Virus record (IMG/VR): IMGVR_UViG_3300043427_001443
Origin: an uncultured virus (IMG/VR IMGVR_UViG_3300043427_001443)
Taxonomy: Duplodnaviria; Heunggongvirae; Uroviricota; Caudoviricetes
Length of the DNA stretch: 64,000 bases
Reading direction: 5' to 3' (one strand)
Within the stretch, counting starts at the first letter, position 1, and each line of letters begins with the position of its first letter. The notes under the pieces were generated by a model. The model was not told the origin of the DNA. It saw nothing but the letters and a program-made list of their open reading frames with translations, and did not search any database. Positions 4,930-56,254 of the stretch are shown here, piece by piece. Made by a program: the position numbers and the translations under genes.

Positions 4930-5151
4930 ATGCCCAAAGAAGATAACACGCTCAGGTTAACCGGAGTGGTAGATGAAGTTCTACCAAATGCTATGTTTAG
5001 AGTGGTTTTGGAAAACAAACATCGCATTACAGCCTACTTAGGTGGTAAAATGCGTAAAAATGACATCAAAATCATTGCCGGAGACCAAGTTGAAGTGGAA
5101 ATGAGTCCTTATGACATGACCCGTGGTCGTGTGATTTATAGGAAACGTTGA
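4930..5151 (+). CDS. infA: Translation initiation factor IF-1
   Basis: [42 protein letters not shown]. Confidence 0.95.
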
Positions 5152-5696
5152 TGGACATTAGACAGGCCATAGACCTAATTGAAGCTCGTAGTGCTAAAAC
5201 ACTGGAGTTAAAACGACTGAAATATGATCGTAGTGCTCTGGCGCCTGTGCTTAGTGCTAGTGCCATTAAATATCACTATGATGAACTGGCACGTGGTTAT
5301 GTAGATAGATACAACAATCGAGAAGGTGATGCACAGTTTAATGAAGCCGGTGCATTTTTACATAACTTATTTTTCGAACAATTTACTAGACCTAAACAGA
5401 ATAATCGCCCAGCTGGTCCTGCTGCCACTCTTATAAACAAGAAGTACGGTGACTTTGGCAAATTTAAGGAACAGGTACAAAAAGCAGCCATGGGAATTCA
5501 AGGGTCAGGTTGGGTCTATATGGCCCGCAACGGTGAAATCAAAACTATTAGAAATCATGCCATCCGCTCAGATATTGCACTGTTAATAGATTGGTGGGAG
5601 CATGCTTGGTTTACAGATTACGGAACTAACAAAATTAAATATCTCAACAACATATGGCGCATTATTAATTGGGGCGTGGTCAATTCTAGACTGTAA
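5151..5696 (+). CDS. sod: Fe/Mn superoxide dismutase
   Basis: ALAP..S, YHY...Y, HNLFF, GSGW, DWWEHA: all four metal ligands present. Confidence 0.85.
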   Translation: MDIRQAIDLIEARSAKTLELKRLKYDRSALAPVLSASAIKYHYDELARGYVDRYNNREGDAQFNEAGAFLHNLFFEQFTRPKQNNRPAGPAATLINKKYGDFGKFKEQVQKAAMGIQGSGWVYMARNGEIKTIRNHAIRSDIALLIDWWEHAWFTDYGTNKIKYLNNIWRIINWGVVNSRL

Positions 5697-7544: not shown

Positions 7545-9452
7545 ATGAGCAAAGTCATTGGTATCGACTTAGGTACCACTAATAGTTGCGTTGCTGTAGT
7601 TGAAAATGGTACAACTCGTGTACTGGAAAACTCAGAAGGCGCAAGAACAACTCCCAGTATCGTTGCTTACAAAGATGATGAAATCCTAGTAGGTGCACCG
7701 GCAAAACGTCAAGCAGTAACCAATCCTAAAAACACAATTTATGCCGCAAAGCGTCTTATTGGTCGCCGCTTTGAGGAATCAGCAGTACAGAAAGACATTG
7801 ACCTCATGCCCTATAGCATTGTCAAAGCTGACAACGGCGATGCTTGGGTTGAAGCCAATGGTGAGCGGATGGCACCACCACAAATCAGTGCCGAAGTACT
7901 GCGTAAGATGAAAAAGACCGCAGAGGACTACTTAGGCCATGATGTTACCCAAGCTGTTATTACTGTTCCGGCCTATTTTAATGATAGTCAGCGTCAAGCT
8001 ACTAAAGATGCTGGCCGTATTGCTGGTTTGGAGGTACTTAGGATCATTAATGAACCCACTGCTGCCGCGTTGGCTTATGGCGTTGATAAATCGGATAAAG
8101 CGGATCGTAAGGTAGCTGTATACGATTTAGGTGGTGGTACATTTGACGTATCAATCATTGAAATCAGTGATGTTGATGGTGACAAGCAAATTGAAGTACT
8201 CAGCACCAATGGTGACACATTCCTGGGCGGTGAAGACTTCGATCAACGCATCATGGACTATGTTATTGCTGAGTTTAAAAAGGAACAAGGCATTGATCTT
8301 AGCAAGGATGTGCTGGCACTACAACGATTAAAAGAAGCTGCTGAAAAAGCCAAGATTGAGCTTAGTAACAGTGCACAAACCGAAGTGAATTTGCCTTATG
8401 TTACCGCCGATGCCACCGGTCCTAAACATCTTAATGTCAAACTAAGTCGTGCCAAGTTAGAGAGTCTAGTTGATGAGTTAATTCAGCGTAGTGTTGGCCC
8501 ATGTCAAACTGCTATGAAAGATGCTGGTGTTGCAGCAGGTGACATCGACGAAGTAATCTTGGTTGGTGGTATGACTCGCATGCCCAAGGTACAGGAAACT
8601 GTAGAACGGTTGTTTGGTCGTGCCCCAAGAAAAGACGTCAACCCAGACGAAGCTGTAGCAGTTGGCGCTGCTATCCAAGGCGCAGTACTAGCAGGAGATC
8701 GCAAGGATGTGCTGTTACTTGATGTAACACCATTGAGCTTGGGCATTGAAACACTAGGCGGCGTGATGACCAAGTTGATTCAAAAGAATACCACTATTCC
8801 TACCAAGCATAGCCAAGTGTTTTCAACGGCCGAACATAATCAGCCTGCGGTGACTATTAAAACTTTCCAAGGTGAACGCGAAATTGCACTACACAATAAA
8901 CTACTTGGCGAGTTTACTTTAGATGGTATTCCGCCTGCTGCCAAAGGTGAACCGCAGATTGAAGTTACTTTCGACATCGACGCCAATGGTATACTCACTG
9001 TTAGTGCTCGTGACAAGAACACTGGCAAAGAAAAGAACATTACCATCAAAGCCAACTCTGGTCTTAGTGAAGCTGAAATCCAACGCATGGTCAAGGATGC
9101 TGAAGAAAATGCCGAAGCAGATCGTAAGTTGATTGACCTGGTTGAAGCTCGTAACAGTGCTGAACGTCAAATTGATTTCATCAAGAAAGACTACGATCAG
9201 TATCGTGACAAGCTAGACGCAGAAGTAGTAGCAAAGCTAGACAAAGCCATGGCTGACCTTGAAGAAGCCAAAAAGGGCGATGATCCAGAAGTGATCCGTA
9301 CCAAGATCACTGAAATGATGCAGAGCAGCAATGAACTGTATCGTGTAAAGAGCGAGGCTGAAAAGGCAGCAGCCGAAGCTGAGAAACCTGCAGAAGCCAG
9401 TGAACAAACGGTAGATGCAGAGTTCAAAGAAAAACCTGCCGACAACAAGTAA
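7545..9452 (+). CDS. dnaK: Hsp70 chaperone DnaK
   Basis: [40 protein letters not shown]. Confidence 0.98.
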
Positions 9453-9466
9453 TTAAATCAGTGTAA

Positions 9467-9514
9467 GGGGATGCCGATGTTCGGGTCCCCGCTCATACTT
9501 GCTTAAGAAAGGAG
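9467..9514 (+). promoter_or_regulatory. ROSE-like RNA thermometer in the hsp20 5' UTR
   Basis: Hairpin GGGGATGCCGA-TGT-TCGGGTCCCC, then CTTGCT-TAAGAA-AGGAG. Confidence 0.75.
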
Positions 9515-9520
9515 AATAAC

Positions 9521-9973
9521 ATGAGTACACTTACATTAAAATCGTTTGATATTCCTACTCTACATCGTTACAGCGTGGGTCTAGATGAGATCTTTGACAC
9601 TTTAATTCGTAGTGCTTCGGCTACCAGTAACAGTAACTATCCTCCATATAACATTATTCGCTACGACGAAAATCGTTATAGTGTAGAAATCGCCTTGGCG
9701 GGTTTCAAAGAGGATGAAGTTGAAATTACTGTACACGAAGGCTACCTTACAGTAGAAGGGCAGCAAAAGACTAAGACCGGGGAACTCGACGGACCCGTTT
9801 ACCTGCATCATGGTATCAGTAAACGTGATTTCCGTAAAACATGGCCTTTGGGCAATCATGTGGAAGTTACCGCAGCTAATTTTGTCGACGGCATCTTAAC
9901 GGTAAATCTAGAACGCCGTGTTCCGGAAGAAATGAAACCAAAAAAGATTGCAATTACCAGTAAAAAGCGTTAA
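9521..9973 (+). CDS. ibpA: Small heat-shock protein (IbpA/Hsp20)
   Basis: NYPPYNI, EIALAGF, YLHHGIS.R.F, DGIL...L. Confidence 0.93.
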   Translation: MSTLTLKSFDIPTLHRYSVGLDEIFDTLIRSASATSNSNYPPYNIIRYDENRYSVEIALAGFKEDEVEITVHEGYLTVEGQQKTKTGELDGPVYLHHGISKRDFRKTWPLGNHVEVTAANFVDGILTVNLERRVPEEMKPKKIAITSKKR

Positions 9974-9976
9974 TAT

Positions 9977-10000
9977 AGTGGCAGGGGCAACCCTGCCACT
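9977..10000 (+). terminator. Strong hairpin after hsp20 (terminator or stability element)
   Basis: AGTGGCAGGG-GCAA-CCCTGCCACT; no clear U tract. Confidence 0.5.
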
Positions 10001-10014
10001 GTCAAAGGATTATT

Positions 10015-10317
10015 ATGAGTAGCGAAACTGCTGTAAAGACCAGAGCCTTGGTTGATATCAAAGAACCCAGTCTTTATCGTGTGATTTATCTTAATGATGA
10101 CACCACTACCATGGAATTTGTCATTGAAAGTTTGGTAATCATTTTCAATATTGCTAGACCAGATGCCGAAGAAATCACACACAGAATTCATGAACATGGA
10201 TCAGCTGTGGTGGCTGTATTACCTTACGAGATCGCAGAACAAAAGGGCATTGAAGTCAGTATAATGGCTAAACGTAATGGATTCCCACTTGTAGTTAAAC
10301 TGGAAGCCGACGAATGA
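10015..10317 (+). CDS. clpS: ClpAP adaptor ClpS
   Basis: YRVIYLNDDTTTMEFV, IHEHG.AVV, YEIAE.K, FPL. Confidence 0.92.
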   Translation: MSSETAVKTRALVDIKEPSLYRVIYLNDDTTTMEFVIESLVIIFNIARPDAEEITHRIHEHGSAVVAVLPYEIAEQKGIEVSIMAKRNGFPLVVKLEADE

Positions 10318-21010: not shown

Positions 21011-21709
21011 ATGTTTGATACAGTGGCAGATTGGAATCAGCGTAGTTATAGATCCGCCGCAGAAATAAATGCGGCTATGGCTCGTGTTTATAATTACATG
21101 TTTCTAGCAGTAGCAGTGAGTATGATTGTGAGTTTGGCAGTGGCCGCTAGTCCCGCTGCAATGGCCGTATTCTTCGGTCCCATTACCAAATGGATCACCA
21201 TGTTTGCACCCTTGGTGTTTGTGTTTCTAGTGCCCATGGCTATCAATTCTGGTATTGCTCGAGAAGGGGCTATTGCGTTATTGCTAGCGTTTGCCGGCAT
21301 AATGGGTCTTAGCCTAAGTGCATTCATGGCAGTGTTCACCGGCACGAGTGTGGTCACAGCATTCTTAGGCGCAAGTGTGCTATTTGGAGTCATGAGCCTA
21401 TATGGTTACTTTACTAAAAGCAGTCTTGATAGCATGGGCAAGTATCTTTTTATTGGTCTTATCGCTATTATTATTGCCAGCGTTATTAATATTTTTATCG
21501 GTAGCAGTGTTATGGCCATGGTTATTAGTGCTGTGGCTATTGTTATTTTTCTGGGCTTAACCGCCTACGATACGCAGCAAATTCGTGAGCAAGTAAGTTA
21601 CGCAGATGAAGATCATCGTGCTGAGGTGTTGGGTGCGTTGAGTCTATACTTGAATTTCATTAATATCTTTACCAGCCTACTTAACCTCACAGGATCACGT
21701 AATGATTAA
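21011..21709 (+). CDS. yccA: Bax inhibitor-1/YccA family membrane protein
   Basis: About 7 TM helices; GLTAYDTQ.I, GALSLYL.FIN.F. Confidence 0.9.
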   Translation: MFDTVADWNQRSYRSAAEINAAMARVYNYMFLAVAVSMIVSLAVAASPAAMAVFFGPITKWITMFAPLVFVFLVPMAINSGIAREGAIALLLAFAGIMGLSLSAFMAVFTGTSVVTAFLGASVLFGVMSLYGYFTKSSLDSMGKYLFIGLIAIIIASVINIFIGSSVMAMVISAVAIVIFLGLTAYDTQQIREQVSYADEDHRAEVLGALSLYLNFINIFTSLLNLTGSRND

Positions 21710-23045: not shown

Positions 23046-24170
23046 ATGATGTCAATCAAACGTAGGCTAGTGCATTTAGCCGTAGCCTCACTTACCGCTG
23101 TAGCATTAGCGGCTTGTACAAAAAAGGAAGAAGCCAAACCCGCAGAGGCTCCTAAAGCAGCAGAGCAGTTAAAAGTGGGATTTATCTATGTAGGACCAGT
23201 GGGCGATGCTGGATGGACATTTGCACACGACAATGGACGCAAACATATCGAAGCTAAATTTGGCGATAAGATCCAAACCACATTTGTAGAGAAGGTACCC
23301 GAAGGCGCTGACGCAGAACGTGTGATTCGTGACTTGGTAGCACAAGGGCACAAGTTGATTTTTGCAACATCATTTGGATTTGGTGATGCCATGGAGAAAG
23401 TGGCCAAGGACCATCCTGATGTCAAGTTTGAACATGCCACTGGTTATAAAACAAGTGAAAACTTGCGTGTATATGAAGCTAAGTTTTATGAAGATGCTTA
23501 CATGGCTGGTGTAGTAGCAGGTACAGTGACCAAGACCAACACAATTGGATTCGTGGCCAGTTTTCCAATTCCTGAAGTCTTGCGTAATATCAACGCATTT
23601 ACTCTAGGTGCTCGCAGTGTTAATCCTAAAGTAACTACAAAAGTTGTATGGGTAAACACATGGTTTGATCCACCAAAGGAAAGTGAAGCAGCACAAGCAC
23701 TAATCAATCAACGAGCTGATGTATTACTACAAAACACTGACTCCACCGCTGTACTACAAACCGCAGAAAAGAATGGCAAGTTTGCCTTTGGGTGGGATAG
23801 TGATATGAGCGCATTTGCTCCTAAGGCACATTTGGGTTCAGCTGTGGTTAACTGGGGTCCTTACTATGAGAAAGCAGTAAACGATGTGCTTAATGGTACA
23901 TGGAAAACGGCGGATACAAAATGGGGAACCAAAGAAGGCGCTAATGACTTGATCAAGGTCGCCGATACCGTGCCCGAAGCAGCAAAGAAGCGTGTTGACG
24001 AAATCAAAGCAGGATTGAAGGCTGGCACGTTCAATGTGTTCCAAGGTCCGTTAAAGGACAATACTGGTAAGGTAGTATTAGAGAAAGATCAAGCAGCAGA
24101 TGATGCTTGGAAAGGTCGTATTAATTTCTACATCGAAGGTGTTGAAGGTCGGGTTCCAAGCGGCAAATAA
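23046..24170 (+). CDS. BMP-family ABC substrate-binding lipoprotein
   Basis: Lipobox LAAC; VGFIYVGP.GD.GW, FATSFGF, W..TWFDP. Confidence 0.9.
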   Translation: MMSIKRRLVHLAVASLTAVALAACTKKEEAKPAEAPKAAEQLKVGFIYVGPVGDAGWTFAHDNGRKHIEAKFGDKIQTTFVEKVPEGADAERVIRDLVAQGHKLIFATSFGFGDAMEKVAKDHPDVKFEHATGYKTSENLRVYEAKFYEDAYMAGVVAGTVTKTNTIGFVASFPIPEVLRNINAFTLGARSVNPKVTTKVVWVNTWFDPPKESEAAQALINQRADVLLQNTDSTAVLQTAEKNGKFAFGWDSDMSAFAPKAHLGSAVVNWGPYYEKAVNDVLNGTWKTADTKWGTKEGANDLIKVADTVPEAAKKRVDEIKAGLKAGTFNVFQGPLKDNTGKVVLEKDQAADDAWKGRINFYIEGVEGRVPSGK

Positions 24171-24177
24171 ATATTAG

Positions 24178-24530
24178 TTATTGTTGTATGAAGCAAGCAG
24201 AAACGTGCTGCGGACGAGGGTTCGAATCCCTCCCACTCCACCATAAAGAGATTGGATGACAGAAGAAGAAATCAATAAACGGAATTTTAGAATTAACATT
24301 GTTATAATTTCGTTAGTTTATATCGTTGGTTTAACTGTTAACATAGTCTTTTTATGATGGGGTGGTATTAGGTTTCGACGGGGCAAATAGTAAGTAAGTG
24401 GACAACACGAGAGGCGAAGAACGTAATTCTAGCAAAAGCAATAAATGCAAACGATGCATATTTCGGAGATGTTCGCCTAGCAGCGTAACCTCCGCGAGGT
24501 AGGAAAAAGGCCTTGTAACCAAACCAACCT
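24178..24530 (+). ncRNA. ssrA: Circularly permuted (two-piece) tmRNA
   Basis: T arm GAGGG-TTCGAAT-CCCTC plus CCACTCC-ACCA (ends 24243) lies upstream of the 5' strand GGGGTGG (24359), giving G3:U70; tag ANDAYFGDVRLAA* at 24447-24488; outer ends are approximate. Confidence 0.92.
24256..24357 (+). CDS. Putative 33-aa membrane peptide inside the tmRNA intervening segment
   Basis: MTEEEINKRNFRINIVIISLVYIVGLTVNIVFL*. Confidence 0.45.
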   Translation: MTEEEINKRNFRINIVIISLVYIVGLTVNIVFL

Positions 24531-24547
24531 GGGCACTTCGGTGCCCA
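24530..24547 (+). terminator. Terminator hairpin after tmRNA
   Basis: TGGGCAC-TTCG-GTGCCCA then TTCTCTT. Confidence 0.75.
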
Positions 24548-24679
24548 TTCTCTTAGCAGTTATTGGTAATATAACCCTAGTTAATACCATTAACTTATTT
24601 GTTTACTCAGAATATTTGACTTTAAATAAAGTACCGTGTACAGTATACGGGTAGTAATTAGATTTGAAAGGAAATTTTA

Positions 24680-25225
24680 ATGAAGAAACTAATTGCAGTT
24701 TTAGCTCTAGCAGCATCTACTACAGCAGGTGCCACTGGCTGGGCCAGTTTTGATGTAGACTCAGTAAGTGGTCGTAATGGTGCCAAGGACAGTACTGCTC
24801 AATACCTAAGAGTCGGCAAGAGCTTTGGTGATCTTAGCTTAATGGTACAAGGTCGTACCGCAAGGTTCGACGGTGGTGGCTTAGTCAACAGCGTAGAAAC
24901 CACAGTAAGCTCACGCAAAGTCAGCTTAGGGCCAATTAGCCCATTTGTAGGCTTTGGCTATGACAATGGTTTCAACGGTGGTCCAGATTTCAAGTATGGA
25001 CTAGTTGGTGCCACTATGGGTGCTAAAGTAGGTCCCGGTTTCGCTATGTTAGGAGCCAAGACTCGCGTTGGTAGCACTCAAGACAACATGACTAACCAGA
25101 CTGTGGCTTTCGCTAGCTACAGTATGCCAGTAACAAAAAGCCTGGGTGTAAACTTTAATGTAAGTCGCAGTAGCCAAGACATTAAAGAAAACGCAGTTGG
25201 TCTAGGATTAGGCGTCAAGTTCTAA
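24680..25225 (+). CDS. Small outer-membrane beta-barrel protein
   Basis: Signal peptide, amphipathic beta strands, C-terminal Phe (GLGLGVKF). Confidence 0.75.
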   Translation: MKKLIAVLALAASTTAGATGWASFDVDSVSGRNGAKDSTAQYLRVGKSFGDLSLMVQGRTARFDGGGLVNSVETTVSSRKVSLGPISPFVGFGYDNGFNGGPDFKYGLVGATMGAKVGPGFAMLGAKTRVGSTQDNMTNQTVAFASYSMPVTKSLGVNFNVSRSSQDIKENAVGLGLGVKF

Positions 25226-26518: not shown

Positions 26519-26637
26519 TGTTTGAATACGCATCGATTTTGGATGTTTATGAAATCAAGCTCTATATCCTTTGTTTAAGTATTGCTGTGGCTATATGGTT
26601 AGGCAATAAGTTTTACGATAATAGGAATAAGAAATAA
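26518..26637 (+). CDS. Small single-TM protein (39 aa, not in ORF track)
   Basis: MFEYASILDVYEIKLYILCLSIAVAIWLGNKFYDNRNKK*, TAATG-coupled at both ends. Confidence 0.6.
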   Translation: MFEYASILDVYEIKLYILCLSIAVAIWLGNKFYDNRNKK

Positions 26638-27239
26638 TGCTTGAACTCATATGGGCATTAGGTGCCATTATCTTAATTGATGTTGTCTTAGGCGGCGAAA
26701 ATGCTATCGTTATCGCTATGGCCAGTCGTCGCCTACCACCAGACCTACGTAAGCAAGCCATGTTATGGGGTACCGTTGGTGCAGTTGGTGTACGCTTCGC
26801 TTGCGTGGCTGCGCTGACCTATTTGCTGATGATTCCTGGCCTAAGGCTTATCGGCGGTCTGGCCTTGTTGTACATTGCTTGGACCTTGGTACGCACCACA
26901 GAAGAAACTGAGCATGAAGTTGCTGCTGCAAGTACCTTTTGGGGAGCCATGGCTACCATTGTCTGGGCCGATGCTGTAATGGGTTTGGATAATGCTCTTG
27001 CTATTGCTGGAGCAGCAGGCGGTAATTGGTGGCTGATTATATTTGGGCTATTAGTTTCTGTACCTATCATCTTGTTTGGTAGTACCGTAGTAGCCAGGAT
27101 CATGGAACGCTGGCCTAAAACAATTTGGGTAGGTGCTGCTGTTTTAGTTGCAGTTGCTGGCCAAATGATTTATGAAGAACCGTTATTAAAGGAATATATC
27201 AATGCAATGGGTAGACCAACTCAAGGAAGCGATTCCTGA
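26637..27239 (+). CDS. TerC/YjbE-family membrane protein
   Basis: IDVVLGGENA, ADAVMGLDN.LAIAG, FGLLVSVPII. Confidence 0.88.
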   Translation: MLELIWALGAIILIDVVLGGENAIVIAMASRRLPPDLRKQAMLWGTVGAVGVRFACVAALTYLLMIPGLRLIGGLALLYIAWTLVRTTEETEHEVAAASTFWGAMATIVWADAVMGLDNALAIAGAAGGNWWLIIFGLLVSVPIILFGSTVVARIMERWPKTIWVGAAVLVAVAGQMIYEEPLLKEYINAMGRPTQGSDS

Positions 27240-34364: not shown

Positions 34365-34554
34365 CTGGGAACATGCTGATTACCATCATGATCAGTCCCA
34401 CAAGACAACGATATTGTAATTCTTCATATATTAATTCAACATCCTCAGGAGCGAGATTTTTCCTTACATCTGGTGCTAGTTCAGCCTGTCCAGAAATCCA
34501 AATTATCAATCCATAAACAAATACAATTGCAGTTAGTACAGCAACATAAATCAT
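34336..34554 (-). CDS. Small two-TM protein
   Basis: Coupled to the cyclase stop codon. Confidence 0.6.
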   Translation of the reverse strand: MIYVAVLTAIVFVYGLIIWISGQAELAPDVRKNLAPEDVELIYEELQYRCLVGLIMMVISMFPVMTYLCVYL

Positions 34555-35792
34555 TGACGCATCCTGTTGTCATCTATAAACTTGATTTGATCTACTAGAG
34601 CATCGGCATCGGTTTTATAATTATTAAAATCTGTTTTTGTTATAGTCTTGTTTAATTCTTCTAATAACCGTTGTGCCTCGGCGTTATGTTGAGCACGAGC
34701 AGCATACAACCATCTAAAAGCATTGCGTTTATCGCCTGTTTTAGTATAATATTCACCCAATCGCAGCATGGCAGGTACTTGCTTTCGCATGGCAGACTCT
34801 TGTAAATCACCTATAACAGCGTCAATTTCTGCGTCACTACTAGTGGGATCATTAAACACCATCATGGCATAACGATGTGAGGCTTGTTCATTTACTCGTG
34901 CTGCAATTTTAACAAATTGTACAGCCAAAGCAGCATGATTCATAGTTTTTGATTCGAGGAAATCTGCCACCTTCAAAGCACGATCACTGTCAATTTTCAT
35001 ACAGCATTCTCGTAGCACAGCAGCCACATAATTTTTCAATTCCGCAGGAATGAGATCTTTCATGCCCATGCTTAATAATTCATCTAAGGCTTCACGATCA
35101 TTTTTTGTTAAACGCCACATTAGAATACGAGTAGCCGGTCCGAATTTTTGTTCGCGTCTAAACATTTGTGCATCATGTAAGGTGCGATTACGAGCGGCTT
35201 GGTCATTGACTACTGCTGCTATCATTTCAGCATGACTCTTGGTAGTGGTAGTAACACTTGGTTTAGCTCGTTTTGCCAAGTTGGGATTGGGTTCAGCACC
35301 GTCGAGTACAACACTCCAAATTTCCATTGGTGCTACATTTTTGAACTCTTGCAGTCCACGACTAATAAATTCATGATCTTTTATCTTGCCTGCAACTAGC
35401 CTATACACAGCATCAGTCATGGTGACACCGCCGTAGTCGGCTAGACTTTCGCAACGAGCAGCCAAGTTTACAGCATCGCCCATTAGGTTAGTACCGTATA
35501 CCCAGACTTCGCCTACATGCATACCCACACGCCAACGCAGACCATTTTTAATTTTAGACATTCGAGTCTGCATGTCTACACCAAAGCGTACAGCATCAAC
35601 AGCACTGGCAAATTCAACTAAGATACTGTCACCACCGGTATTGAATAATCTACCGCGACTAGAATCTATTAGTGGATCAATTACAGCGCGAGCATTGTCA
35701 AGGCGGCGTAAAGTACCTTCTTCATCTTGCTGCATTAGAGTGCTGTAGCCGATTACATCGCTACAGATTATAGTGGCTAATTTGGTATCCAT
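34551..35792 (-). CDS. Class III nucleotidyl cyclase with C-terminal Sel1-like repeats
   Basis: SDVIGYS, NTGGDS, RVGMHVGEV, GDAVNLAAR; AMLRLGEYY..AFRWLYAA; ATG at 35792 coupled to the upstream TGA. Confidence 0.88.
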   Translation of the reverse strand: MDTKLATIICSDVIGYSTLMQQDEEGTLRRLDNARAVIDPLIDSSRGRLFNTGGDSILVEFASAVDAVRFGVDMQTRMSKIKNGLRWRVGMHVGEVWVYGTNLMGDAVNLAARCESLADYGGVTMTDAVYRLVAGKIKDHEFISRGLQEFKNVAPMEIWSVVLDGAEPNPNLAKRAKPSVTTTTKSHAEMIAAVVNDQAARNRTLHDAQMFRREQKFGPATRILMWRLTKNDREALDELLSMGMKDLIPAELKNYVAAVLRECCMKIDSDRALKVADFLESKTMNHAALAVQFVKIAARVNEQASHRYAMMVFNDPTSSDAEIDAVIGDLQESAMRKQVPAMLRLGEYYTKTGDKRNAFRWLYAARAQHNAEAQRLLEELNKTITKTDFNNYKTDADALVDQIKFIDDNRMRQ

Positions 35793-36229
35793 CAAGCACC
35801 TTCTTCGCGACTCCATCTATACTCAGGTAAACACTGTCTCGGTACAATCTTTTTATCCACAGTGATTACCATGACATATTCGCATAAGCGTTTGAAAGCT
35901 TCGGTATGAGCTTGTAATCTTCGCTCTAGTCTTTGATTTACTCTTTCCTGTTGATCATGCTGTGCTGCTAGCGACTGATTAGCTTTGGTCTGACGCTCTA
36001 GAGCTTGTTCTAACTGTTCTATGCGTTTTGTTAATGGTTCAATGTCAACTTTGGGTTCTTCAACCACTGGTTGTGGCGGTGCTGCTACTGGAACCGGTAC
36101 AGGATTTTGTTTGCGTACTATACCTACAGCCAATAAAATTAACACAGTAAAATACACTATTGCCAAGTAAAAACGCCAATTTGTTTTGAAGTGATCTTGT
36201 ATCATCGTTGATTTTATATCCATATACAT
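35792..36229 (-). CDS. Single-TM coiled-coil protein
   Basis: TM, Pro-rich linker, coiled coil, two Cys. Confidence 0.7.
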   Translation of the reverse strand: MYMDIKSTMIQDHFKTNWRFYLAIVYFTVLILLAVGIVRKQNPVPVPVAAPPQPVVEEPKVDIEPLTKRIEQLEQALERQTKANQSLAAQHDQQERVNQRLERRLQAHTEAFKRLCEYVMVITVDKKIVPRQCLPEYRWSREEGA

Positions 36230-48546: not shown

Positions 48547-48891
48547 ATGTACAAACATCGAATTCAAAAATTAAAAGCACTGCATGACAGTGTGTTAGTA
48601 TCCGAAATGAAGTTTGAGGAACGCCGTACCAGCAGTGGCATTGTGATCCCCAACGACAATGCCAAAGACAGTGGCATTAGACCACGCTGGGCCCGAGTCT
48701 ATGCTGTGGGCCCAGACCAACGAGACGTGGTAGTAGGGCAATATGTCTGCGTAGCACATGGCCGTTGGACTCGTGGTGTAACCATTGAAGATGAATCTGG
48801 ATCACGAGAAATCAGGCGTGTAGACAATAACGACATACTTTTGGTCAGTGACACCGAACCAATGGACGAAACATTCAGTGACAAAGTCTAA
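48547..48891 (+). CDS. groES: GroES-like co-chaperonin
   Basis: L.DSVLV, TSSGIVIP, V.AVGP, V.VG, DIL. Confidence 0.8.
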   Translation: MYKHRIQKLKALHDSVLVSEMKFEERRTSSGIVIPNDNAKDSGIRPRWARVYAVGPDQRDVVVGQYVCVAHGRWTRGVTIEDESGSREIRRVDNNDILLVSDTEPMDETFSDKV

Positions 48892-48932
48892 CAACTTGTG
48901 CTATAATTCAATTACTGAGATTTCAAGGAAAC

Positions 48933-49865
48933 ATGATGTTAGCTTCACAGCTTTGGGTAGAGAAGTATCGCAGTCGCACCATTGACGACTATGTGTTCAC
49001 AGATCCAGCAGTACGCACACAGGTAGAGCACTGGATCGCCGACGGTCGATTTCCACATTTGTTATTGTATGGTCCAGCTGGTACCGGTAAAACCACCTTG
49101 GCCAAATTGTTGATTGGTAATCTAGGCATTGAAGATTCTGATGTGATGATAGCCAATGGCAGCAAAGAAGGTCGTAAAATTGAATGGGTAGATCGGCTGA
49201 TTGGCTTTTGTCAAACCATGCCTTTTGGCCCGTTCAAGGTTGTGCTCATTGACGAAGCTGACTACCTTAACAAGGATTCAGTACAGCCGGCCATGCGTAA
49301 TCTCATGGAAGACTATGCTGACAGTGTACGATTTATCTTAACCTGTAATTATCATAATCGTATTATTCCACCGTTACGTAGTCGTTGTCATGAATTACAC
49401 ATTGACAAAACTGATCAAACTGAATTTACTGCTCGTGCAGCCACGGTGCTGGTCAATGAAAACGTAGAATTTAACCTAGATGACCTAGACAGTTATGTCA
49501 AGGCCACTTACCCAGATCTGCGTAAGTGTTTGAATTTGTTGCAAGCCAACAGTATCACTGGTACTTTAAAAGTGGCTGCTGTGAGCAGTGCTGGTGGTGA
49601 TTTTAGATTAGACGCTGTAAAACTGTTTAAATCTGGTGATGCACGTAAAGCGCGGCAACTGCTGTGTAATCAAGCCAGGCCCGAAGACATGGAAGAAATC
49701 TTTCGCTGGGCCTATGACAACTTGGATCTATGGAGCAACAACGAAGAAGGTCAAGACGAAGCCATTGTGATCATACGTCGTGGCTTGGTTAACCATGTCA
49801 GCTGCGCCGATCCAGAAATCAATCTCAGCGCCACTATCACTGAACTTATTTCAATTGGAAAATAA
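48933..49865 (+). CDS. Clamp loader AAA+ subunit (RFC/gp44-like)
   Basis: LWVEKYR, GPAGTGKTT, IDEAD, FILTCN, LRSRC, DLRK. Confidence 0.92.
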   Translation: MMLASQLWVEKYRSRTIDDYVFTDPAVRTQVEHWIADGRFPHLLLYGPAGTGKTTLAKLLIGNLGIEDSDVMIANGSKEGRKIEWVDRLIGFCQTMPFGPFKVVLIDEADYLNKDSVQPAMRNLMEDYADSVRFILTCNYHNRIIPPLRSRCHELHIDKTDQTEFTARAATVLVNENVEFNLDDLDSYVKATYPDLRKCLNLLQANSITGTLKVAAVSSAGGDFRLDAVKLFKSGDARKARQLLCNQARPEDMEEIFRWAYDNLDLWSNNEEGQDEAIVIIRRGLVNHVSCADPEINLSATITELISIGK

Positions 49866-49867
49866 CA

Positions 49868-50250
49868 TGCGAAACATTTACCTAGTAGCTTACTATTTTA
49901 AACGTCCACGTGACAATCGAGTGCGTACTCAAATTGCCGGTTGGCAAAACAACCAAAACAATGTCAGCTACGATGAACAAGTGGCTGTAACACATAGTCT
50001 ACGTAAACGCGACGAAACCATGGCTAGTATTATTTTGGACATGGTTAATCGACGTGTGGTTAAAAATCGTTGGCAGTCAGGTCGCTCATTTGATGAACTC
50101 TTGGATTATTTTGCCAAGAGCTATCCACAGCATACCACAGAGTTAATGCGAAGCATTGACGCTGCCAGGCCCAATCCAGGCTTGGCCAAAGTCGAAGCTC
50201 CAGTCATCACTGTACCCACTGGGGAAATACGCACTGTAGATACACAATAA
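49868..50250 (+). CDS. Hypothetical protein
   Basis: ATG at 49868. Confidence 0.7.
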
Positions 50251-50258
50251 ATATCTAC

Positions 50259-50504
50259 ATGAATCCAGCCTTTGCTCGCTTACTGAAGAATCGTAAAAAA
50301 CGCGAACGTGATCCTAATGCGCCACCTGCTCCTACCTTGTTAGGACAGGTCAAAGAACTGCGTTTGACCAAAGAAGAACAGGACAGGCAAGGGTTGGAAC
50401 TAGTGGTCATGCGTCAACGTTTGGAATACATGGAAGCCAAAAATAGACGACTAGAAATACAGTTAAAAGACCTAGAAAATTATATACGCAGCAGAATCAA
50501 GTAA
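50259..50504 (+). CDS. Small coiled-coil protein
   Basis: Follows ATAAATA. Confidence 0.65.
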   Translation: MNPAFARLLKNRKKRERDPNAPPAPTLLGQVKELRLTKEEQDRQGLELVVMRQRLEYMEAKNRRLEIQLKDLENYIRSRIK

Positions 50505-50661
50505 CTTAGACCCAATTTAATGTTTTCAAAAAAGAACTTCCCCAGCTGGTGTTGTCAGCAGTGTGGTGAGCACATAGGATGGCTGGGACGTTTTCTCACT
50601 GTGTTATTACCAAAATGGCATCGTTGCCAAAATCATGATAATTCACATTTAGGAATTTAGC

Positions 50662-50877
50662 ATGCCTTACACTACTGTAGAAGTCGAAGTTAATTTAGAT
50701 GATTTTACTACCGAGGATCTAGTAGAAGAATTACGGCATCGTGGCGCCGATCGGCGAGAACTACCCGAGGAGATTATCGAGAAACTAGCACATATACATC
50801 ATGCTAGACTATGTGGACAGCCCTGGGAAAACGACCTAGATCGTTTCCTCAAGGATGTGCTAGGTCGTGCTATTTAG
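50662..50877 (+). CDS. Hypothetical protein
   Basis: VEVNLDDF...L..EL. Confidence 0.6.
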   Translation: MPYTTVEVEVNLDDFTTEDLVEELRHRGADRRELPEEIIEKLAHIHHARLCGQPWENDLDRFLKDVLGRAI

Positions 50878-51674
50878 TTTTCACCATATAATTTAAGCAC
50901 TTCAGCCACGGCGGGATGTCTTTGTACATCTCGTCGGCCAAAATTCACACTGGCTATCATAGCACTGTCGGTGGCCGCAAGGCGTGCTAGAAAATCTCTT
51001 AATCCATTATCGGTATTGAATTTCCGATCCATTTGATTAAGATCACCAGTAACTACTAATTTCGACCCCTCGCTAAGGCGTGTAAGAACCATCTTCATCT
51101 GGTTTGTTGTTGCGTTTTGGGCTTCATCAAAGATGATCCAGCTTCGCTTAAAGTTTCGGCCTCTCATATATGCTAGTGGAGCTATCTCTAAGGTTTGTTC
51201 ATCTAGCATACTCGCGATATCCCGAGTCGAATAGTACTCTTGAACTACATCCATGATGGGCCTGGTCCAAGGCTCCATCTTTTGATATAGGTCACCGGGT
51301 AAAAACCCGTGTTCTTCATCATCTACACCTACTGCTGGCCGTGTAATAATCAGTCGATCGATTTTCCTTTCCTTAAAGGCTTTGATTCCGGCCATTACTG
51401 CTAACATGGTCTTGCCAGTTCCTGCTGGTCCAGTGGCTAATACAATTAGCCTTTGAGGATCTATTAATAAGTCTATATACTCTTCCTGTTTTAGTGTTTT
51501 AGGGATTAAATTAACTGCCTTTTGCTTGTTTTGAACATAACTGTTCATGCCGATTACGTTATTACTAGTCGTGTCGATATCACGAACAGCACGGTTTGAA
51601 TGTGCTCGTCTTTTACCTGCCAAGTCTTTTTCTCCTATGGTATTAATAGATATCATCCTTGAACCCATGTGCAC
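50874..51674 (-). CDS. phoH: PhoH-family ATPase
   Basis: GPAGTGKT, GFLPGDL..KM.PW, PLAYMRGR, DEAQN, GD..Q.D; start uncertain. Confidence 0.93.
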   Translation of the reverse strand: MHMGSRMISINTIGEKDLAGKRRAHSNRAVRDIDTTSNNVIGMNSYVQNKQKAVNLIPKTLKQEEYIDLLIDPQRLIVLATGPAGTGKTMLAVMAGIKAFKERKIDRLIITRPAVGVDDEEHGFLPGDLYQKMEPWTRPIMDVVQEYYSTRDIASMLDEQTLEIAPLAYMRGRNFKRSWIIFDEAQNATTNQMKMVLTRLSEGSKLVVTGDLNQMDRKFNTDNGLRDFLARLAATDSAMIASVNFGRRDVQRHPAVAEVLKLYGEN

Positions 51675-51825
51675 TAGTGCACACAGGTATTTACGGATCA
51701 GAAAAAGCTATTTCTACACCATGAAAATACAGTTTTATTTGAGATAAGTATTTGGCTATCCCCAGACAAAACCCTAGGTACCCCCAAATAGCTAAATAAA
51801 ATAAATAACATAAACGAGAGTACCT

Positions 51826-52380
51826 ATGGTCGCCAAGATCAAAGACATTTTAGATAACACCAAGTCAGTGTACATGACAGACAGTGCACTAGAAAGCCTT
51901 ATGGATTTTGAACGTGTACTAGACGAGTTAGACACTTATGTGTTTGATAATTGGTCTAAAGGCGAACTAGTAGAAGGTCCAATTTATGAAAAATACTTTG
52001 TGACCTGCACTTTTATGTGGCCTTACAGGCTCATGCCTGACCCACGTGGTGGTGAACGCTTGTTAGACTATAACTGTCAAGTAAGATATCGTAAAACACA
52101 TTTTGAATACCCGGTGGTAGTCAAAGATCAAGATGATTTCAGACCAGGTACACGTCATCCTAAAATGGTCAAGCGACCAGTGTGGTTAGTGGAAATAGTC
52201 ATGCCTAAACAACTAATGCGTGACATTGAGCGTGGCAGTATTGAACTAGAATCAGAAACCGTGGACCTAGAAGACATTGAACAAGCCTATGAAGTAGGTC
52301 TAGATGATGATGTCTATAAACAAGATGAAGATGAAAATGCACAACAACCAACTGCTCCAGCAGCCCAACCCGCTATCTGA
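51826..52380 (+). CDS. Late hypothetical protein
   Basis: ORF after tandem TAAATA motifs. Confidence 0.75.
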   Translation: MVAKIKDILDNTKSVYMTDSALESLMDFERVLDELDTYVFDNWSKGELVEGPIYEKYFVTCTFMWPYRLMPDPRGGERLLDYNCQVRYRKTHFEYPVVVKDQDDFRPGTRHPKMVKRPVWLVEIVMPKQLMRDIERGSIELESETVDLEDIEQAYEVGLDDDVYKQDEDENAQQPTAPAAQPAI

Positions 52381-52915
52381 AGGCCTCGAAGCCCAAGACC
52401 TTAAACGCTTGGTTAATACTCGCGTAACCATTGACGAGTATAAAAGCAAGGTTGGCTCAGACGAAGAAATAGTGGTTGTGAGTTTTATGGTACAAGGCAA
52501 AGATCCAGCCTTGGACTTGGTTAGTTTTGTAGAAAAAAGTTATGATTGGGTCATTGATGCTGATGCCAGCTCCGGTGAACTAGAAGATGGCAGCTATGTG
52601 GTATTCATTGAAATGGACCGCAATCAAGAGATTCCTGCTAATCTAGCACAGTTATTTGCAGATCTTGAACCATTGACCGACCTCAGCATAGAGGATTGGT
52701 CTGTGGTGTATGCTAAGCCAGAACGTGAAGGCACTGCTGATCAAGAAAGTCTAGCCAGTATTATACCATTATCGCCCGAAGCTTATCGTGGTTTACAGCA
52801 ACAAGAAAAAACAGAATTAGATCAGCTGAAAACAGCAGCTGGCATCAAAGTAGAAACACGAGCACCAAAAAATGATTTTACAGAGAGTCTGCGTATAGCT
52901 GCTGGTATACGTTAG
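52337..52915 (+). CDS. Late hypothetical protein
   Basis: IDEYKSK.G...; leader ending in LSE|G. Confidence 0.7.
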   Translation: MHNNQLLQQPNPLSEGLEAQDLKRLVNTRVTIDEYKSKVGSDEEIVVVSFMVQGKDPALDLVSFVEKSYDWVIDADASSGELEDGSYVVFIEMDRNQEIPANLAQLFADLEPLTDLSIEDWSVVYAKPEREGTADQESLASIIPLSPEAYRGLQQQEKTELDQLKTAAGIKVETRAPKNDFTESLRIAAGIR

Positions 52916-52937
52916 ACATCAAGGGGGTATTTCGATT

Positions 52938-53477
52938 ATGGACCAACTTTTATTTTTATTTCAGTTTTTCCCTGACATAATGTGGCATATCTTGCTACTA
53001 GTCACTGGGTTATTAACCTTTTTATGTGTGGGATTTAATTTTGTCCCTTACCGATTGCCTGTTGGTGCACTGGCAGGCATAATCTTTATAATGAGCGTTT
53101 GGATGGAAGGTGTTATCAGCAACGAAGCCAAGTGGCAAGCTGAACTAGATGCCATGAGAATCGCACTGTCTGAAGCTGAAAAGAAAGCCACACAAAAGAA
53201 TGTAGAAATACAAGAAAAGGTAGTGTACAAAGACAAAATCATCAAAGAAAAAGGTGCAGCTCAAATTCAGTACATTGATCGTATCGTACAAGGTGATACC
53301 ATCAAAGAAACCGTAGTCAAAGACATGACTCCTGAACAACGTGCAGAGTTTGAAAAGAAAGTTGCTGAACTACAAACATCGATTAAAAATTGTCCTGTGC
53401 CCAAGATTGTTATAGAAGAACACAACAAGGCAGCTATCCGAGCCATCAATGACGCAGCCAAAGGAGAAAAGAAATGA
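52938..53477 (+). CDS. Inner-membrane spanin-like protein
   Basis: TM, coiled coil, Cys; sits before a lipoprotein and the endolysin. Confidence 0.65.
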   Translation: MDQLLFLFQFFPDIMWHILLLVTGLLTFLCVGFNFVPYRLPVGALAGIIFIMSVWMEGVISNEAKWQAELDAMRIALSEAEKKATQKNVEIQEKVVYKDKIIKEKGAAQIQYIDRIVQGDTIKETVVKDMTPEQRAEFEKKVAELQTSIKNCPVPKIVIEEHNKAAIRAINDAAKGEKK

Positions 53478-53764
53478 GATACATTTTGATTGCTCTAATG
53501 GCATTGGTCATCACTGGGTGTACTGTAAAGAAGCCAGTACTAATGATGCCTGAGTTTCCTACACCTATCAAAGAGCTTACTGAAAAGTGCAATGAGCTTA
53601 AATTAATAGAAGCAGACGCTGTGGCTATCACAGAAATGCTAAAAACCATTGTGCATAACTACACACTGTATCATCAGTGCAGTTTGAAAGTCGATGGATG
53701 GAACGAGTGGTACACAGAACAGAAAAAGATCTACGATGAACTACGTAGCAAAGGCAAACAATGA
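53474..53764 (+). CDS. Outer-membrane spanin-like lipoprotein
   Basis: Lipobox ITGC, Pro-rich, NY..Y..C. Confidence 0.7.
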   Translation: MRYILIALMALVITGCTVKKPVLMMPEFPTPIKELTEKCNELKLIEADAVAITEMLKTIVHNYTLYHQCSLKVDGWNEWYTEQKKIYDELRSKGKQ

Positions 53765-54384
53765 GCGATTTTATTTTATCCAAAGAACAACTAGCACAAT
53801 TGATTCCAGGCAATCCTTACGTGGATTATTGGCACTCAGCCATGGAACGCTGTTTGCCGGACTATGACATCAATACACCGAAGCGTGTAGCAGCATTTAT
53901 GGCGCAGTGCGGACATGAGTCAGGCAATTTTAAGTTTCTAAAAGAAAATCTAAAATATCGCGCTCAAAGCCTGGTCAAAGTTTGGCCCAGATATTTTCCT
54001 AACATGGACATTGCCAATCAGTATGCTGGCAAGGAAGAAATGATTGCCAATCGTGCTTATGCTAATCGCATGGGCAATGGTCCAGAAGAGTCCGGAGACG
54101 GCTGGCGCTTTTGTGGTCGAGGATTAATTCAGCTTACAGGACGCAACAACTATCAGTCCTTTGCTGACAGCATCGAAACTGACATTAACGATATTCCTGC
54201 ATACCTAGGTACCTTTGAAGGCGCTGTACAATCAGCTTGTTGGTTTTGGGAAACTAATAATCTTAACAAATTTGCTGATGCCGGAGACATGCTGAATTTA
54301 ACCAAACGCATCAATGGCGGAACACTGGGCCTAGACGATCGCATCAAGCACTATCAACATGCATTACATGTTTTAGGAGTTTAG
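53761..54384 (+). CDS. GH19 endolysin
   Basis: AAFMAQCGHES, ENL.Y, GRGLIQLTGR.NY, TKRINGG..GL.DR. Confidence 0.93.
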   Translation: MSDFILSKEQLAQLIPGNPYVDYWHSAMERCLPDYDINTPKRVAAFMAQCGHESGNFKFLKENLKYRAQSLVKVWPRYFPNMDIANQYAGKEEMIANRAYANRMGNGPEESGDGWRFCGRGLIQLTGRNNYQSFADSIETDINDIPAYLGTFEGAVQSACWFWETNNLNKFADAGDMLNLTKRINGGTLGLDDRIKHYQHALHVLGV

Positions 54385-54385
54385 C

Positions 54386-54949
54386 ATGGGAATATTTTCT
54401 AAAAAGAAAGGAACAGTGAAAGTGGCCGAAGAAGAAAAGAAAGAAGACGCAGTTGAACCAAAATCAGCTGAAAAGAAACAAGAAGATTGGATGAATTCAA
54501 AATGGCGTCCAGCTATGGGTTGGATGTACATGATGGTTTGTGTGTTTGATTTTATTGTATTCCCCATCATGTTCACCATTGTGCAGTTTTGGGAAACCGA
54601 AGCTGCCAATGATGCATTTCGCCAATGGCAACCACTTACTCTAGCTGGAGCAGGCTTGTTCCATATGGCCATGGGTGCTGTACTAGGTTTGAGTGCTTGG
54701 GGACGTACACAAGAAAAGCTAAATGGTGCCAACAACGGTGGCATGCAACCAGTTAGTCAAAGTGTAACTACTACATATGGTGCAGCACCTAGTGGTGGAG
54801 GAATGGGAAATTTCTCAAGCGCCCCGGCGGATAATTTTGGTGCCAGCGCCGGCGGCTTTGGGGCACCTCAACCAAACAACTGGGGACAGGTAGTAACCGG
54901 CTTCGGCGGCAAGCCTGCTCCAGTGGAACCACCCAGAGAATGGATTTAA
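54386..54949 (+). CDS. Holin (WRP.MGW type)
   Basis: KWRPAMGW, two TM segments, GRTQEK. Confidence 0.7.
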   Translation: MGIFSKKKGTVKVAEEEKKEDAVEPKSAEKKQEDWMNSKWRPAMGWMYMMVCVFDFIVFPIMFTIVQFWETEAANDAFRQWQPLTLAGAGLFHMAMGAVLGLSAWGRTQEKLNGANNGGMQPVSQSVTTTYGAAPSGGGMGNFSSAPADNFGASAGGFGAPQPNNWGQVVTGFGGKPAPVEPPREWI

Positions 54950-54958
54950 GGAGCAATC

Positions 54959-55339
54959 ATGCAATTAGTTAAAGGTCTTGTAGTAGTATTATTTGGTGCC
55001 TTATTGGCTACCAACCTTAGTGCTTGCAGCAAAGAAGCCAAGCCCGGTGATGCCGGCAAAGCAGCCAAAGCAGCAACATCAAGTTCAGCTGCTCCAGCTG
55101 CTGAGCCTGTTAAGCCTGTTGAACCTGCCAAGGTTTCGGAACCTGCCAAAGCAGCCGAAAAGAAGGATGAAGGTGCCGATCGTGCAGGCAAAGGCGAAAT
55201 GAAAGAAGTTTGTCATGACAAAATTGGCAAGGATGGTCAGCCGGTGTTAGACAAAGAAGGCAAAGCAGTACGTGATTGTAAAATGATCCGTGTGCGCCAG
55301 AAATTAGAAGCTCACGAAATTCCACCAGCCAAGAAGTAA
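54959..55339 (+). CDS. Ala/Pro/Lys-rich lipoprotein
   Basis: Lipobox LSAC; two-Cys C-terminal domain. Confidence 0.7.
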   Translation: MQLVKGLVVVLFGALLATNLSACSKEAKPGDAGKAAKAATSSSAAPAAEPVKPVEPAKVSEPAKAAEKKDEGADRAGKGEMKEVCHDKIGKDGQPVLDKEGKAVRDCKMIRVRQKLEAHEIPPAKK

Positions 55340-55412
55340 TCAAGTTTGACATTACCCAAAAGGTATAGTATTATTAATACTGTACCTTTTTCTGTTTACG
55401 ATATATACATAT

Positions 55413-56246: not shown

Positions 56247-56254
56247 AGGTAACT

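Follow-up and report, generated by a model that had tools for sequence, protein, structure and literature searches.

A candidate membrane-peptide gene in the intervening segment of a permuted phage tmRNA gene

A two-piece transfer-messenger RNA (tmRNA) made from a permuted gene is expected to lose the segment that lies between its two pieces, and the locus described here raises the question of whether such a segment can hold a protein-coding gene. We analyzed 64,000 nucleotides from an uncultured virus of the class Caudoviricetes (IMG/VR record IMGVR_UViG_3300043427_001443; "the window" below means this whole stretch of DNA). The sequence is gene-dense, mostly one-stranded and 42.6% G+C, and was treated as the virus record of a large phage. 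The intervening segment (IVS) of its tmRNA gene is almost filled by an open reading frame (ORF) of 33 codons with the product MTEEEINKRNFRINIVIISLVYIVGLTVNIVFL. Substitutions among related loci, together with the recurrence of similar ORFs in other phage tmRNA genes, suggest that the IVS is likely to hold a genuine small protein gene, selected on its sequence, for a 33-residue single-pass membrane peptide.

The tmRNA gene and the conserved reading frame in its intervening segment

The window locus is a permuted two-piece tmRNA gene. It scored above the cut-offs of two Rfam models, tmRNA_permuted (RF04321, 117 bits against a cut-off of 47, over 24182-24488) and beta_tmRNA (RF01850, 89.7 bits against 84, over 24128-24551). 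The permuted order is evident from the sequence CCACTCC-A-CCA (24233-24243), which lies upstream of GGGGTGG (24359-24365). The acceptor strands paired in the alignment (columns 52-58 with 178-184, including the G-U third pair, U56-G180), and a T-arm pair (columns 36-50) was changed from A-U to C-G in two of six relatives. The spacer of 115 nt that had been proposed to lie between CCA and the 5' end was borne out by these coordinates (Table 1). From the biology of permuted tmRNAs described in the 2025 tmRNA database paper (PMC11915505), RNase P is expected to release this segment at its 3' end, and trimming of the acceptor piece back to CCA is expected to remove it at its 5' end.

The ORF had been described as nearly filling the spacer and as coding for a charged N-terminus and one transmembrane (TM) helix, and its coordinates, length and hydropathy agree with this description. 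About 12 polar or charged residues are followed by a hydrophobic helix of about 21 residues, and the maximum 15-residue Kyte-Doolittle hydropathy is 2.40. A single base, T24358, separates the stop codon of the ORF from GGGG.

Table 1. Coordinates of the tmRNA gene, its intervening segment and adjoining features in the window
Feature	Position	Strand	Basis or remark
Bmp/PnrA-like lipoprotein (ABC substrate-binding) gene	23046-24170	+	Directly upstream of tmRNA
Permuted tmRNA call	24151-24579	+	ARAGORN; tag ANDAYFGDVRLAA
Two-piece tmRNA, whole	24182-24551	+	Rfam and ARAGORN
Acceptor piece: 5' pairing segment, T arm, 3' acceptor strand, discriminator A24240, CCA 24241-24243	24182-24243	+	RF04321/RF01850 alignments, ARAGORN
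Closing stem, 5' strand CATAAAGAGATT, containing AAAGAG 24245-24250	24242-24253	+	Minimum free energy fold and alignment fold
IVS, 115 nt, from CCA end 24243 to 5' GGGG at 24359	24244-24358	+	Insertion in Rfam alignment
33-codon ORF, ATG 24256 to TGA 24357, product MTEEEINKRNFRINIVIISLVYIVGLTVNIVFL	24256-24357	+	ORF call, conserved in 8 loci
Closing stem, 3' strand AGTCTTTTTATG: last codons (V F L) and first two stop-codon bases	24345-24356	+	Minimum free energy fold and alignment fold
Coding piece: 5' acceptor strand GGGGTGG 24359-24365, tag frame, terminal hairpin	24359-24551	+	ARAGORN, Rfam
Tag reading frame ANDAYFGDVRLAA, stop TAA, hydrophobic C-terminus	24447-24488	+	ARAGORN
Terminator-like hairpin, then TTCTCTT	24530-24547	+	Sequence scan

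Two IMG/VR scans for CCA-spacer-GGGG patterns gave, among the matches listed, two relatives with an IVS of 115 nt each (L145 and L138). Searches of IMG/VR and of JGI metagenomes with the back-translated peptide, plus one DNA pattern scan, raised the set to eight loci (the window, L321, which is L138, L322, L323, L324, which is L145, L325, L326 and L327), with seven distinct sequences. All eight kept the 33 codons without an indel or a premature stop (in L322 the contig end cuts the sequence after codon 33), and the stop codon was TGA in six loci and TAA in L327. The codon for Arg9 occurred as CGG, CGT, CGA and AGA, and further synonymous series included ACA/ACG/ACT, GAA/GAG, ATC/ATT, AAC/AAT, GGT/GGG and GTT/GTC/GTA. 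Codon position 3 accounted for 13 of the 22 variable columns, position 1 for six and position 2 for three. By the Nei-Gojobori method (NG86), pooled over 21 pairs of the seven sequences, the proportion of synonymous differences (pS) was 0.282, that of nonsynonymous differences (pN) was 0.041, and pN/pS was 0.146; frames +1 and +2 of the same alignment gave 1.16 and 2.20, with 4-7 stops per sequence. The original prediction had placed a cargo gene in the processing loop, and the conserved frame, the low pN/pS and the absence of frame-breaking indels or stops from the eight homologous loops all support it on this point.

Could the frame nevertheless be a product of chance, that is, a functionless hydrophobic frame in an AT- and U-rich spacer that persists through recent common ancestry? 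Taken alone, the ORF is only weakly unusual: of the dinucleotide shuffles of the L138 loop, which is near-identical to that of the window, 7.5% contained an ORF of equal or greater length. The weight therefore rests on the relatives and on the enrichment across phage loops that is described below. The family is also shallow, with its seven distinct sequences mostly 91-97% identical and their pairs non-independent, so that most of the selection signal comes from L324 and L327, and 63% of random sets of 18 substitutions created no stop. Against a chance origin, the window and L324 differed at 18 of 102 bases and in only six residues (R/K, I/V, S/L, I/V, V/I and L/I), with pS 0.55 and pN 0.083. 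In a simulation of 18 random substitutions with the same number of transitions, six or fewer residue changes were obtained in 0.1% of 100,000 trials (P = 0.001). The 13/6/3 split among codon positions, the four synonymous Arg codons and the stop kept as TAA also argue against it, as does the recurrence of such ORFs in other phages, and we consider a chance ORF highly improbable. The caution, voiced in the original prediction, that AT-rich DNA gives hydrophobic ORFs by chance was justified for the lone sequence and is overruled by the substitution pattern of the relatives and by the loop enrichment.

The rest of the tmRNA gene evolved in a different manner. In L325, L326, L321 and L327 the IVS was 91-97% identical to that of the window and as well conserved as the tRNA-like domain (91-100% for the two together), against 60-66% in what remains of the coding piece. 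In the tag and pseudoknot part (window 24385-24551), which was hypervariable, identity dropped to about 60% where the IVS of the same tmRNA retained 83-97%, and the tags of these loci differed (ANDAYFGDVRLAA, ANDDYFGEVRLAA and ANDELFAMAA). This pattern suggests either modular exchange or fast evolution of the tag region.

Membrane-peptide frames in other phage and cellular intervening segments

Four pattern scans, two with TTTCGAC ("beta-like") and two with GATCGAC ("alpha-like") 5' domains, were combined with the family loci into a set of 430 unique IVS, 61-123 nt in length; this count, and all the loop counts that follow, hold among the matches listed. An ORF was scored as a TM-peptide ORF if it started with ATG, coded for at least 20 aa and reached a 15-residue hydropathy of at least 2.0. 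Such ORFs were present in 37 of the 430 loops (26 beta-like and 11 alpha-like), a sample value and not a census figure, since the scans sampled loops about 62-123 nt long and were limited to two fixed 5' motifs. Dinucleotide shuffles gave a mean of 1.7 (maximum 6 in 30 rounds) and the antisense strand gave one, an enrichment of about 20-fold and about 37-fold, respectively. With a stricter layout, in which the ATG had to lie at IVS nt 5-25 and the ORF had to take up 70% or more of the IVS, 35 loops passed, versus 0.8 in shuffles. The set was seeded with loci that had been fetched because they carried the ORF of the window, and the test was therefore rerun by sequence cluster. Cluster representatives passed in 21 of 294 cases, compared with 1.06 in shuffles (maximum 6 in 100 rounds). 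A TM ORF occurred in 22 of the 294 clusters, and in all 22 it was retained by every member (L088 and L170 were checked by hand). There was no general enrichment of long ORFs: over all loops together the mean sense ORF was 18.0 codons, against 17.7 in shuffles, and only an AT-rich subset with ATG-initiated hydrophobic ORFs exceeded expectation.

The peptides fell into about 15 unrelated families, all of which had a short polar head and one hydrophobic helix. Examples are MSNQ[DN]LFWAF..., MKTPDIIVV..., M[KR]YI[FL]LL..., MEKSFMW..., MDDDLTRF..., M[AHS]D[VI]VTYL..., MD[NR][QE][LI]W... and MNDTSRLALW.... By family, pN/pS was 0.06-0.09 for MSNQ, 0.33 for MKY/MRY, 0.45 for MDN/MDR and 0.41-0.53 for MFD. 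Pooled over minimum-spanning pairs it was 0.42 in the ORF frame and 0.81 and 1.36 in the control frames, a figure blurred by single-linkage grouping, which merged unrelated hydrophobic peptides. A canonical Shine-Dalgarno (SD) core was located 4-17 nt before the ATG in 18 of the 37 ORF loops, compared with 58 of the 393 non-ORF loops at the same place, and several loop-ORF families had AAGGAG. The weak SD that had been noted in the window is real for the MTEEEINKRNFRINIVIISLVYIVGLTVNIVFL family (AAAGAG, 5 nt upstream of the ATG; AAATAG in L324), whereas nearly half of the loop ORFs have the canonical 4-nt core.

One family was arranged differently. In the MF[DEN][EDN]W[HQ]W... family (L094, L098, L133, L170 and L088; IVS of about 98 nt) the ORF lies outside the UGA frame and extends past the RNase P site into the start of the tmRNA. 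Cleavage would make such an ORF a non-stop message.

Collecting permuted tmRNAs from related phages had been proposed as a check on the frame, and this comparison came out in favor of the cargo gene: the frame was conserved, and related tmRNAs carried unrelated loops, some of them with other small ORFs, within a conserved stem. The next-closest tmRNAs (L148, L284, L270 and L259), which are about 80% identical in the conserved parts, had unrelated IVS of 61-92 nt and no ORF of this kind. Processing thus appears to require no specific interior sequence, and the IVS can be regarded as a variable slot. The IVS of L148 and L270 contained T-arm-like GGTTCGAA(C/T)CC motifs, as if a tRNA-like fragment occupied the slot.

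Permuted tmRNA genes occur in Alphaproteobacteria, Betaproteobacteria, cyanobacteria and aquatic phages (Rfam RF04321, RF01849-51; PMC11915505, PMC9004378). We found them above the cut-off in 44 of 151 sampled Pseudomonadota genomes and in 7 of 151 genomes of the order around the lineage that donated the Bmp gene (Table 1), including one unpublished genome (G032). When 37 cellular loci were given to ARAGORN, 30 were parsed, with IVS of 5-49 nt and no notable ORF. Three long cellular IVS that ARAGORN missed (about 76, 118 and 144 nt) had no hydrophobic ORF, and the remaining four loci were weak matches. The phage gene resembles the cellular ones in the order acceptor piece-IVS-coding piece, the tRNA-like domain, the G-U third pair and a tag ending in LAA. 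It differs from them in the IVS, which in cells was either a short hairpin or, in the three long cases, lacked such an ORF. With no TM-peptide ORF in any of 33 cellular IVS, the ORF-bearing IVS is a phage trait within the samples examined.

RNA fold, stop motif and a possible mode of expression

The stem proposed to close the spacer, CATAAAGAGATT with AGTCTTTTTATG, was found in both folds, the one from the single sequence and the one from the alignment (columns 61-73 with 163-175), and contains 12 predicted pairs including G-U and U-G. U24252 was replaced by C in three of six sequences, changing U-G to C-G. The 3' strand was invariant in all six aligned sequences, except that G24356 was A in L327, where TGA became TAA. 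The stem is also general, as in loops without an ORF a mean of 10.2 of 12 leader-tail pairs formed.

These features might mean that RNA-level constraint is all that is conserved, with the fold or sequence of the IVS needed for RNase P or 3'-end processing and the frame a by-product. The general closing stem and UGAU motif (see below) agree with this explanation, and so does the somewhat better folding of the window IVS relative to shuffles (z = -2.05; 10 of 200 shuffles folded equally well). However, constraint of this kind cannot yield three-base periodicity or series of purely synonymous codons. Of the 64 pairs that the alignment fold predicts, one showed a compensatory change, and it belongs to the T arm; none was found within the IVS, where interior pairs were broken in the divergent sequences L324, L326 and L327. 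The unrelated IVS of the four next-closest tmRNAs also speak against it, and we regard an exclusively RNA-level explanation as very unlikely. Judged from these alignments and predicted folds, RNA constraint accounts for the ends of the IVS and not for its interior.

The stop codon belongs to the RNA-constrained ends. Among the loops without a TM ORF, TGAT directly preceded GGGG in 132 of the 179 that are beta-like and in 167 of the 214 that are alpha-like, and a stop triplet was present at -4 to -2 in 312 of these 393 loops. The same motif was used as the ORF stop in 22 of 26 beta-like and 4 of 11 alpha-like ORF loops. Because TGAT is general in ORF-less loops, the nearness of the stop to the cleavage site appears to be inherited from the RNA and not to have evolved for the peptide. 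The original prediction gave the position of the stop correctly, 1 nt ahead of the predicted RNase P site, but this position is no adaptation of the ORF. The near-universal TGAT may keep stray ribosomes off the tmRNA or may reflect a leader preference of RNase P. Similarly, the C-terminal V-F-L (elsewhere V-F-F or S-L-F) is the translated U-rich 3' stem strand, which pairs with the purine-rich leader.

A third alternative is that the act of translation matters and the peptide is thrown away: a ribosome would open the stem and delay RNase P, tuning tmRNA output in the manner of a leader peptide. Several features are compatible with such a role: the ORF stops 1 nt short of the cleavage site, its last codons form the 3' stem strand, the ORF of the MFD... 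family crosses the cleavage site, and the gene is located in a proteostasis-rich phage region. On the other hand, residues were conserved along the whole peptide, with I/V/L and R/K replacements. At least 15 unrelated families share the polar head and single helix, although U-richness adds hydrophobicity, and most phage IVS and all 33 cellular IVS have no ORF. We consider this alternative unlikely, though less so than the two preceding ones.

Several points weigh against a selected peptide. Besides the shuffle result for the single loop, the shallowness of the family and the composition and seeding of the loop set, constraint was weak in some families: pN/pS was 0.80-0.88 for divergent MEK members and 0.82-1.05 for L172 versus L179 and L163, and the merging of unrelated peptides affects the pooled value given above. 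The C-terminal V-F-L-stop is set by the stem and UGAU and not by peptide function. The SD of the MTEEEINKRNFRINIVIISLVYIVGLTVNIVFL family is weak, and the predicted folds place both the SD-like leader and the AUG in helices with the ORF's own 3' end. Finally, among the sequencing runs with near-identical DNA there was no RNA run. Four runs labelled RNA-Seq were scored as "probably DNA", and their contigs lay mostly over the conserved T arm; contigs X17 record 1 and X18 record 14 cover parts of the ORF, with substitutions only, and have no bearing on expression. With these points included, the codon-level evidence still makes translation of the ORF and selection on its product likely, and the product is probably a membrane peptide.

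The sequences show the anatomy of the locus, the conserved frame, the purifying selection and the recurrence of this layout in many unrelated phage IVS; from there we infer excision of the IVS, translation of the ORF, insertion of the peptide in the membrane and gating by the stem. One tentative scheme would connect these steps. The tmRNA gene would be transcribed as one precursor from a promoter just upstream, and ribosomes would load mainly on the nascent RNA, before the 3' strand of the stem exists; loading at that stage is possible, as some 90 nt of transcription separate the SD and AUG from the sequences with which they pair. The 12-bp stem would then extend the acceptor helix and sequester the SD-like leader, and the next helix would sequester the AUG. 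Once formed, the stem would shut the ORF and present an extended acceptor helix to RNase P and the 3' trimming enzymes. Peptide output would follow transcription of the phage tmRNA and yet be limited, and expression would be tied to tmRNA maturation or compete with it. The peptide would insert in the inner membrane with its KRNFR segment in the cytoplasm. We hold this stem-gated translation to be possible, at somewhat less than an even chance.

As to function, the size and shape of the peptide make a membrane-acting accessory infection protein our best guess (for example, a modulator of a host membrane protein, an exclusion factor or a lysis-timing factor), and not a component of trans-translation. 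A more speculative and rather doubtful extension is that the IVS serves as an exchangeable expression slot for small membrane-active peptides gated by tmRNA biogenesis, with the SD locked in the stem and translation occurring before the stem forms or after processing. It would couple a membrane event (depolarization, exclusion or lysis timing, much as type I toxins act) to the onset of ribosome rescue and proteostasis, and ORFs crossing the RNase P site would be cut to non-stop mRNAs whose products are tagged by the same tmRNA.

A holin or other protein of a lysis cassette was considered and rejected. The Glyco_hydro_19-like gene (53761-54384) and the GTA_holin_3TM gene (54386-54949) are about 30 kb away, and the peptide has 33 aa compared with the usual 60 aa or more.

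Precedents, database searches and genome context

Work on permuted two-piece tmRNA genes reportedly includes that of Keiler (2000) and of Sharkady and Williams (2004). In the accessible parts of the literature on two-piece and permuted tmRNAs we found no report of a protein-coding ORF in an IVS, in agreement with the remark in the original prediction that no described example was known. The accessible text of PMC11915505 mentions a tRNA gene (an intact tRNA-Ala in one IVS) and a repeat element inside IVS, and no protein-coding ORF. It also describes tmRNA genes whose T loop is interrupted by a group I intron that carries a homing-endonuclease gene. Like these introns, the phage IVS is a part of a tmRNA gene that is absent from the mature RNA and has a protein gene nested in it. 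Unlike them, it involves no intron or splicing, holds a tiny ORF unrelated to mobility and lies between the two pieces instead of in the T loop.

The nearest published analogue that we found, as far as the available part of its description goes, is the IVS in the 23S rRNA of Coxiella burnetii with its S23p ORF (PMC4990558), a 428-nt element called selfish, whose protein was suggested not to be made. Both are stem-closed spacers in a stable-RNA gene that are excised without religation, leave a fragmented mature RNA and have an ORF inside. The phage case differs from what is described there in its 33 codons, its apparent purifying selection, its predicted membrane peptide and its location in a phage tmRNA gene.

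Other known systems combine some of these features. Dual-function RNAs such as SgrS/SgrT, RNAIII/hld and SR1/SR1P give a functional RNA and a small protein from one transcript. In these the ORF is in the mature functional RNA, whereas in the phage tmRNA it is in the discarded part. Type I toxin mRNAs such as hok, tisB, aapA1 and zorO code for one-helix hydrophobic peptides of 20-50 residues. Long-range pairing of the two ends of these RNAs locks the SD, and translation needs processing or a kinetic window. The window ORF resembles them in its small hydrophobic peptide and in the sequestration of its SD by long-range pairing in predicted folds. It may differ from them in sequence and in the lack of an antisense partner: the loop peptides showed no similarity to type I toxins in the Pfam-A and PHROGs searches, and no antisense RNA or promoter was seen in a consensus scan of the minus strand over 23900-24800, which gave no promoter-like site. 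Nested ORFs in excised stable-RNA spacers and dual-function RNA genes are therefore already known, and a putative peptide gene in a tmRNA IVS would be new relative to print.

Database searches gave little further information on the peptides. GenBank phages had no match to the tmRNA region (blastn) or to the peptide (tblastn, E up to 1), and none of 20 loop peptides had a credible match in Pfam-A or PHROGs (best E 0.014 and 0.011, respectively). A profile search of 1.84 billion protein representatives detected the MTEEEINKRNFRINIVIISLVYIVGLTVNIVFL family once, in a protein of 44 aa (P0001) in which TGA is read as W and the sequence continues into the tmRNA; the call was probably made with an alternative genetic code. 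The exact window peptide was absent from a collection of 15 billion proteins. The highest feature scores from the ESM Atlas, 0.81-0.78, belonged to unnamed clusters and to small membrane proteins like YniD and YkgR; shuffled sequences reached this level a third of the time, and we treat the scores as a lead only. Annotation pipelines mask tmRNA genes as non-coding, and such peptides are thus effectively invisible.

If these genes are real, the spacers of phage tmRNAs repeatedly conceal small membrane proteins (about 15 unrelated families or more in a limited sample) and add a new class to the small-protein repertoire of phages. Such genes would offer a clean example, found in nature, of a protein gene that occupies the part of a stable-RNA precursor to be thrown away and has its ribosome binding site within the processing stem. 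Two questions would become directly testable: the competition between translation and RNase P on a single RNA, and the reason why aquatic phages so often carry two-piece tmRNAs. IVS peptide genes appear to be widespread among aquatic phages.

The gene directly upstream of the tmRNA codes for a Bmp/PnrA-like product with 65-83% identity to proteins of freshwater Burkholderiales-type metagenome-assembled genomes. The adjacency of the two genes was retained in L323, L324 and L325. ARAGORN found no tmRNA beside the Bmp gene in 80 Burkholderiales-type host loci, so these loci were unusable as comparators, and no permuted tmRNA was present in the nearest virus record (G001; 36.5 kb, 10% complete).

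Two promoter-like sequences were observed near the tmRNA. The element AATAAATA at 24166-24173 overlaps the stop codon of the Bmp gene about 8 nt before the 5' end of the tmRNA. It was kept in all seven loci with upstream sequence, though the contexts farther upstream differ, and it resembles the T4-type late promoter TATAAATA, of which the form TATAAAT is quoted in PMC9004378. A sigma-70-like site (TTAACT-16-TATGAT, 24331-24358, 9 of 12 matches) falls within the last part of the ORF, and transcription from it would begin near the tmRNA 5' end; 1.5 such sites are expected by chance in the scanned region.

Elsewhere in the window, a proteostasis set that is dense for a phage was found at 7545-10317 and 48547-58567 (DnaK, Hsp20, ClpS, GroES-like, DnaJ and a ClpB/ClpA-like double AAA+ protein). 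Further genes include tail-fibre (Peptidase_S74), PhoH, MazG, clamp-loader and lysis genes. There are also host-like accessory genes for an adenylate/guanylate-cyclase-domain protein (34551-35816, minus strand), a Bax1-I family membrane protein (21011-21709), TerC (26637-27239) and an Fe/Mn superoxide dismutase (5148-5696). Besides the four possible source samples, metagenome runs of several studies on fresh water, lakes, estuaries and drinking water contained DNA near-identical to positions 24100-24700 (at least 93% of sampled words), which indicates that this phage lineage is widespread in fresh water.

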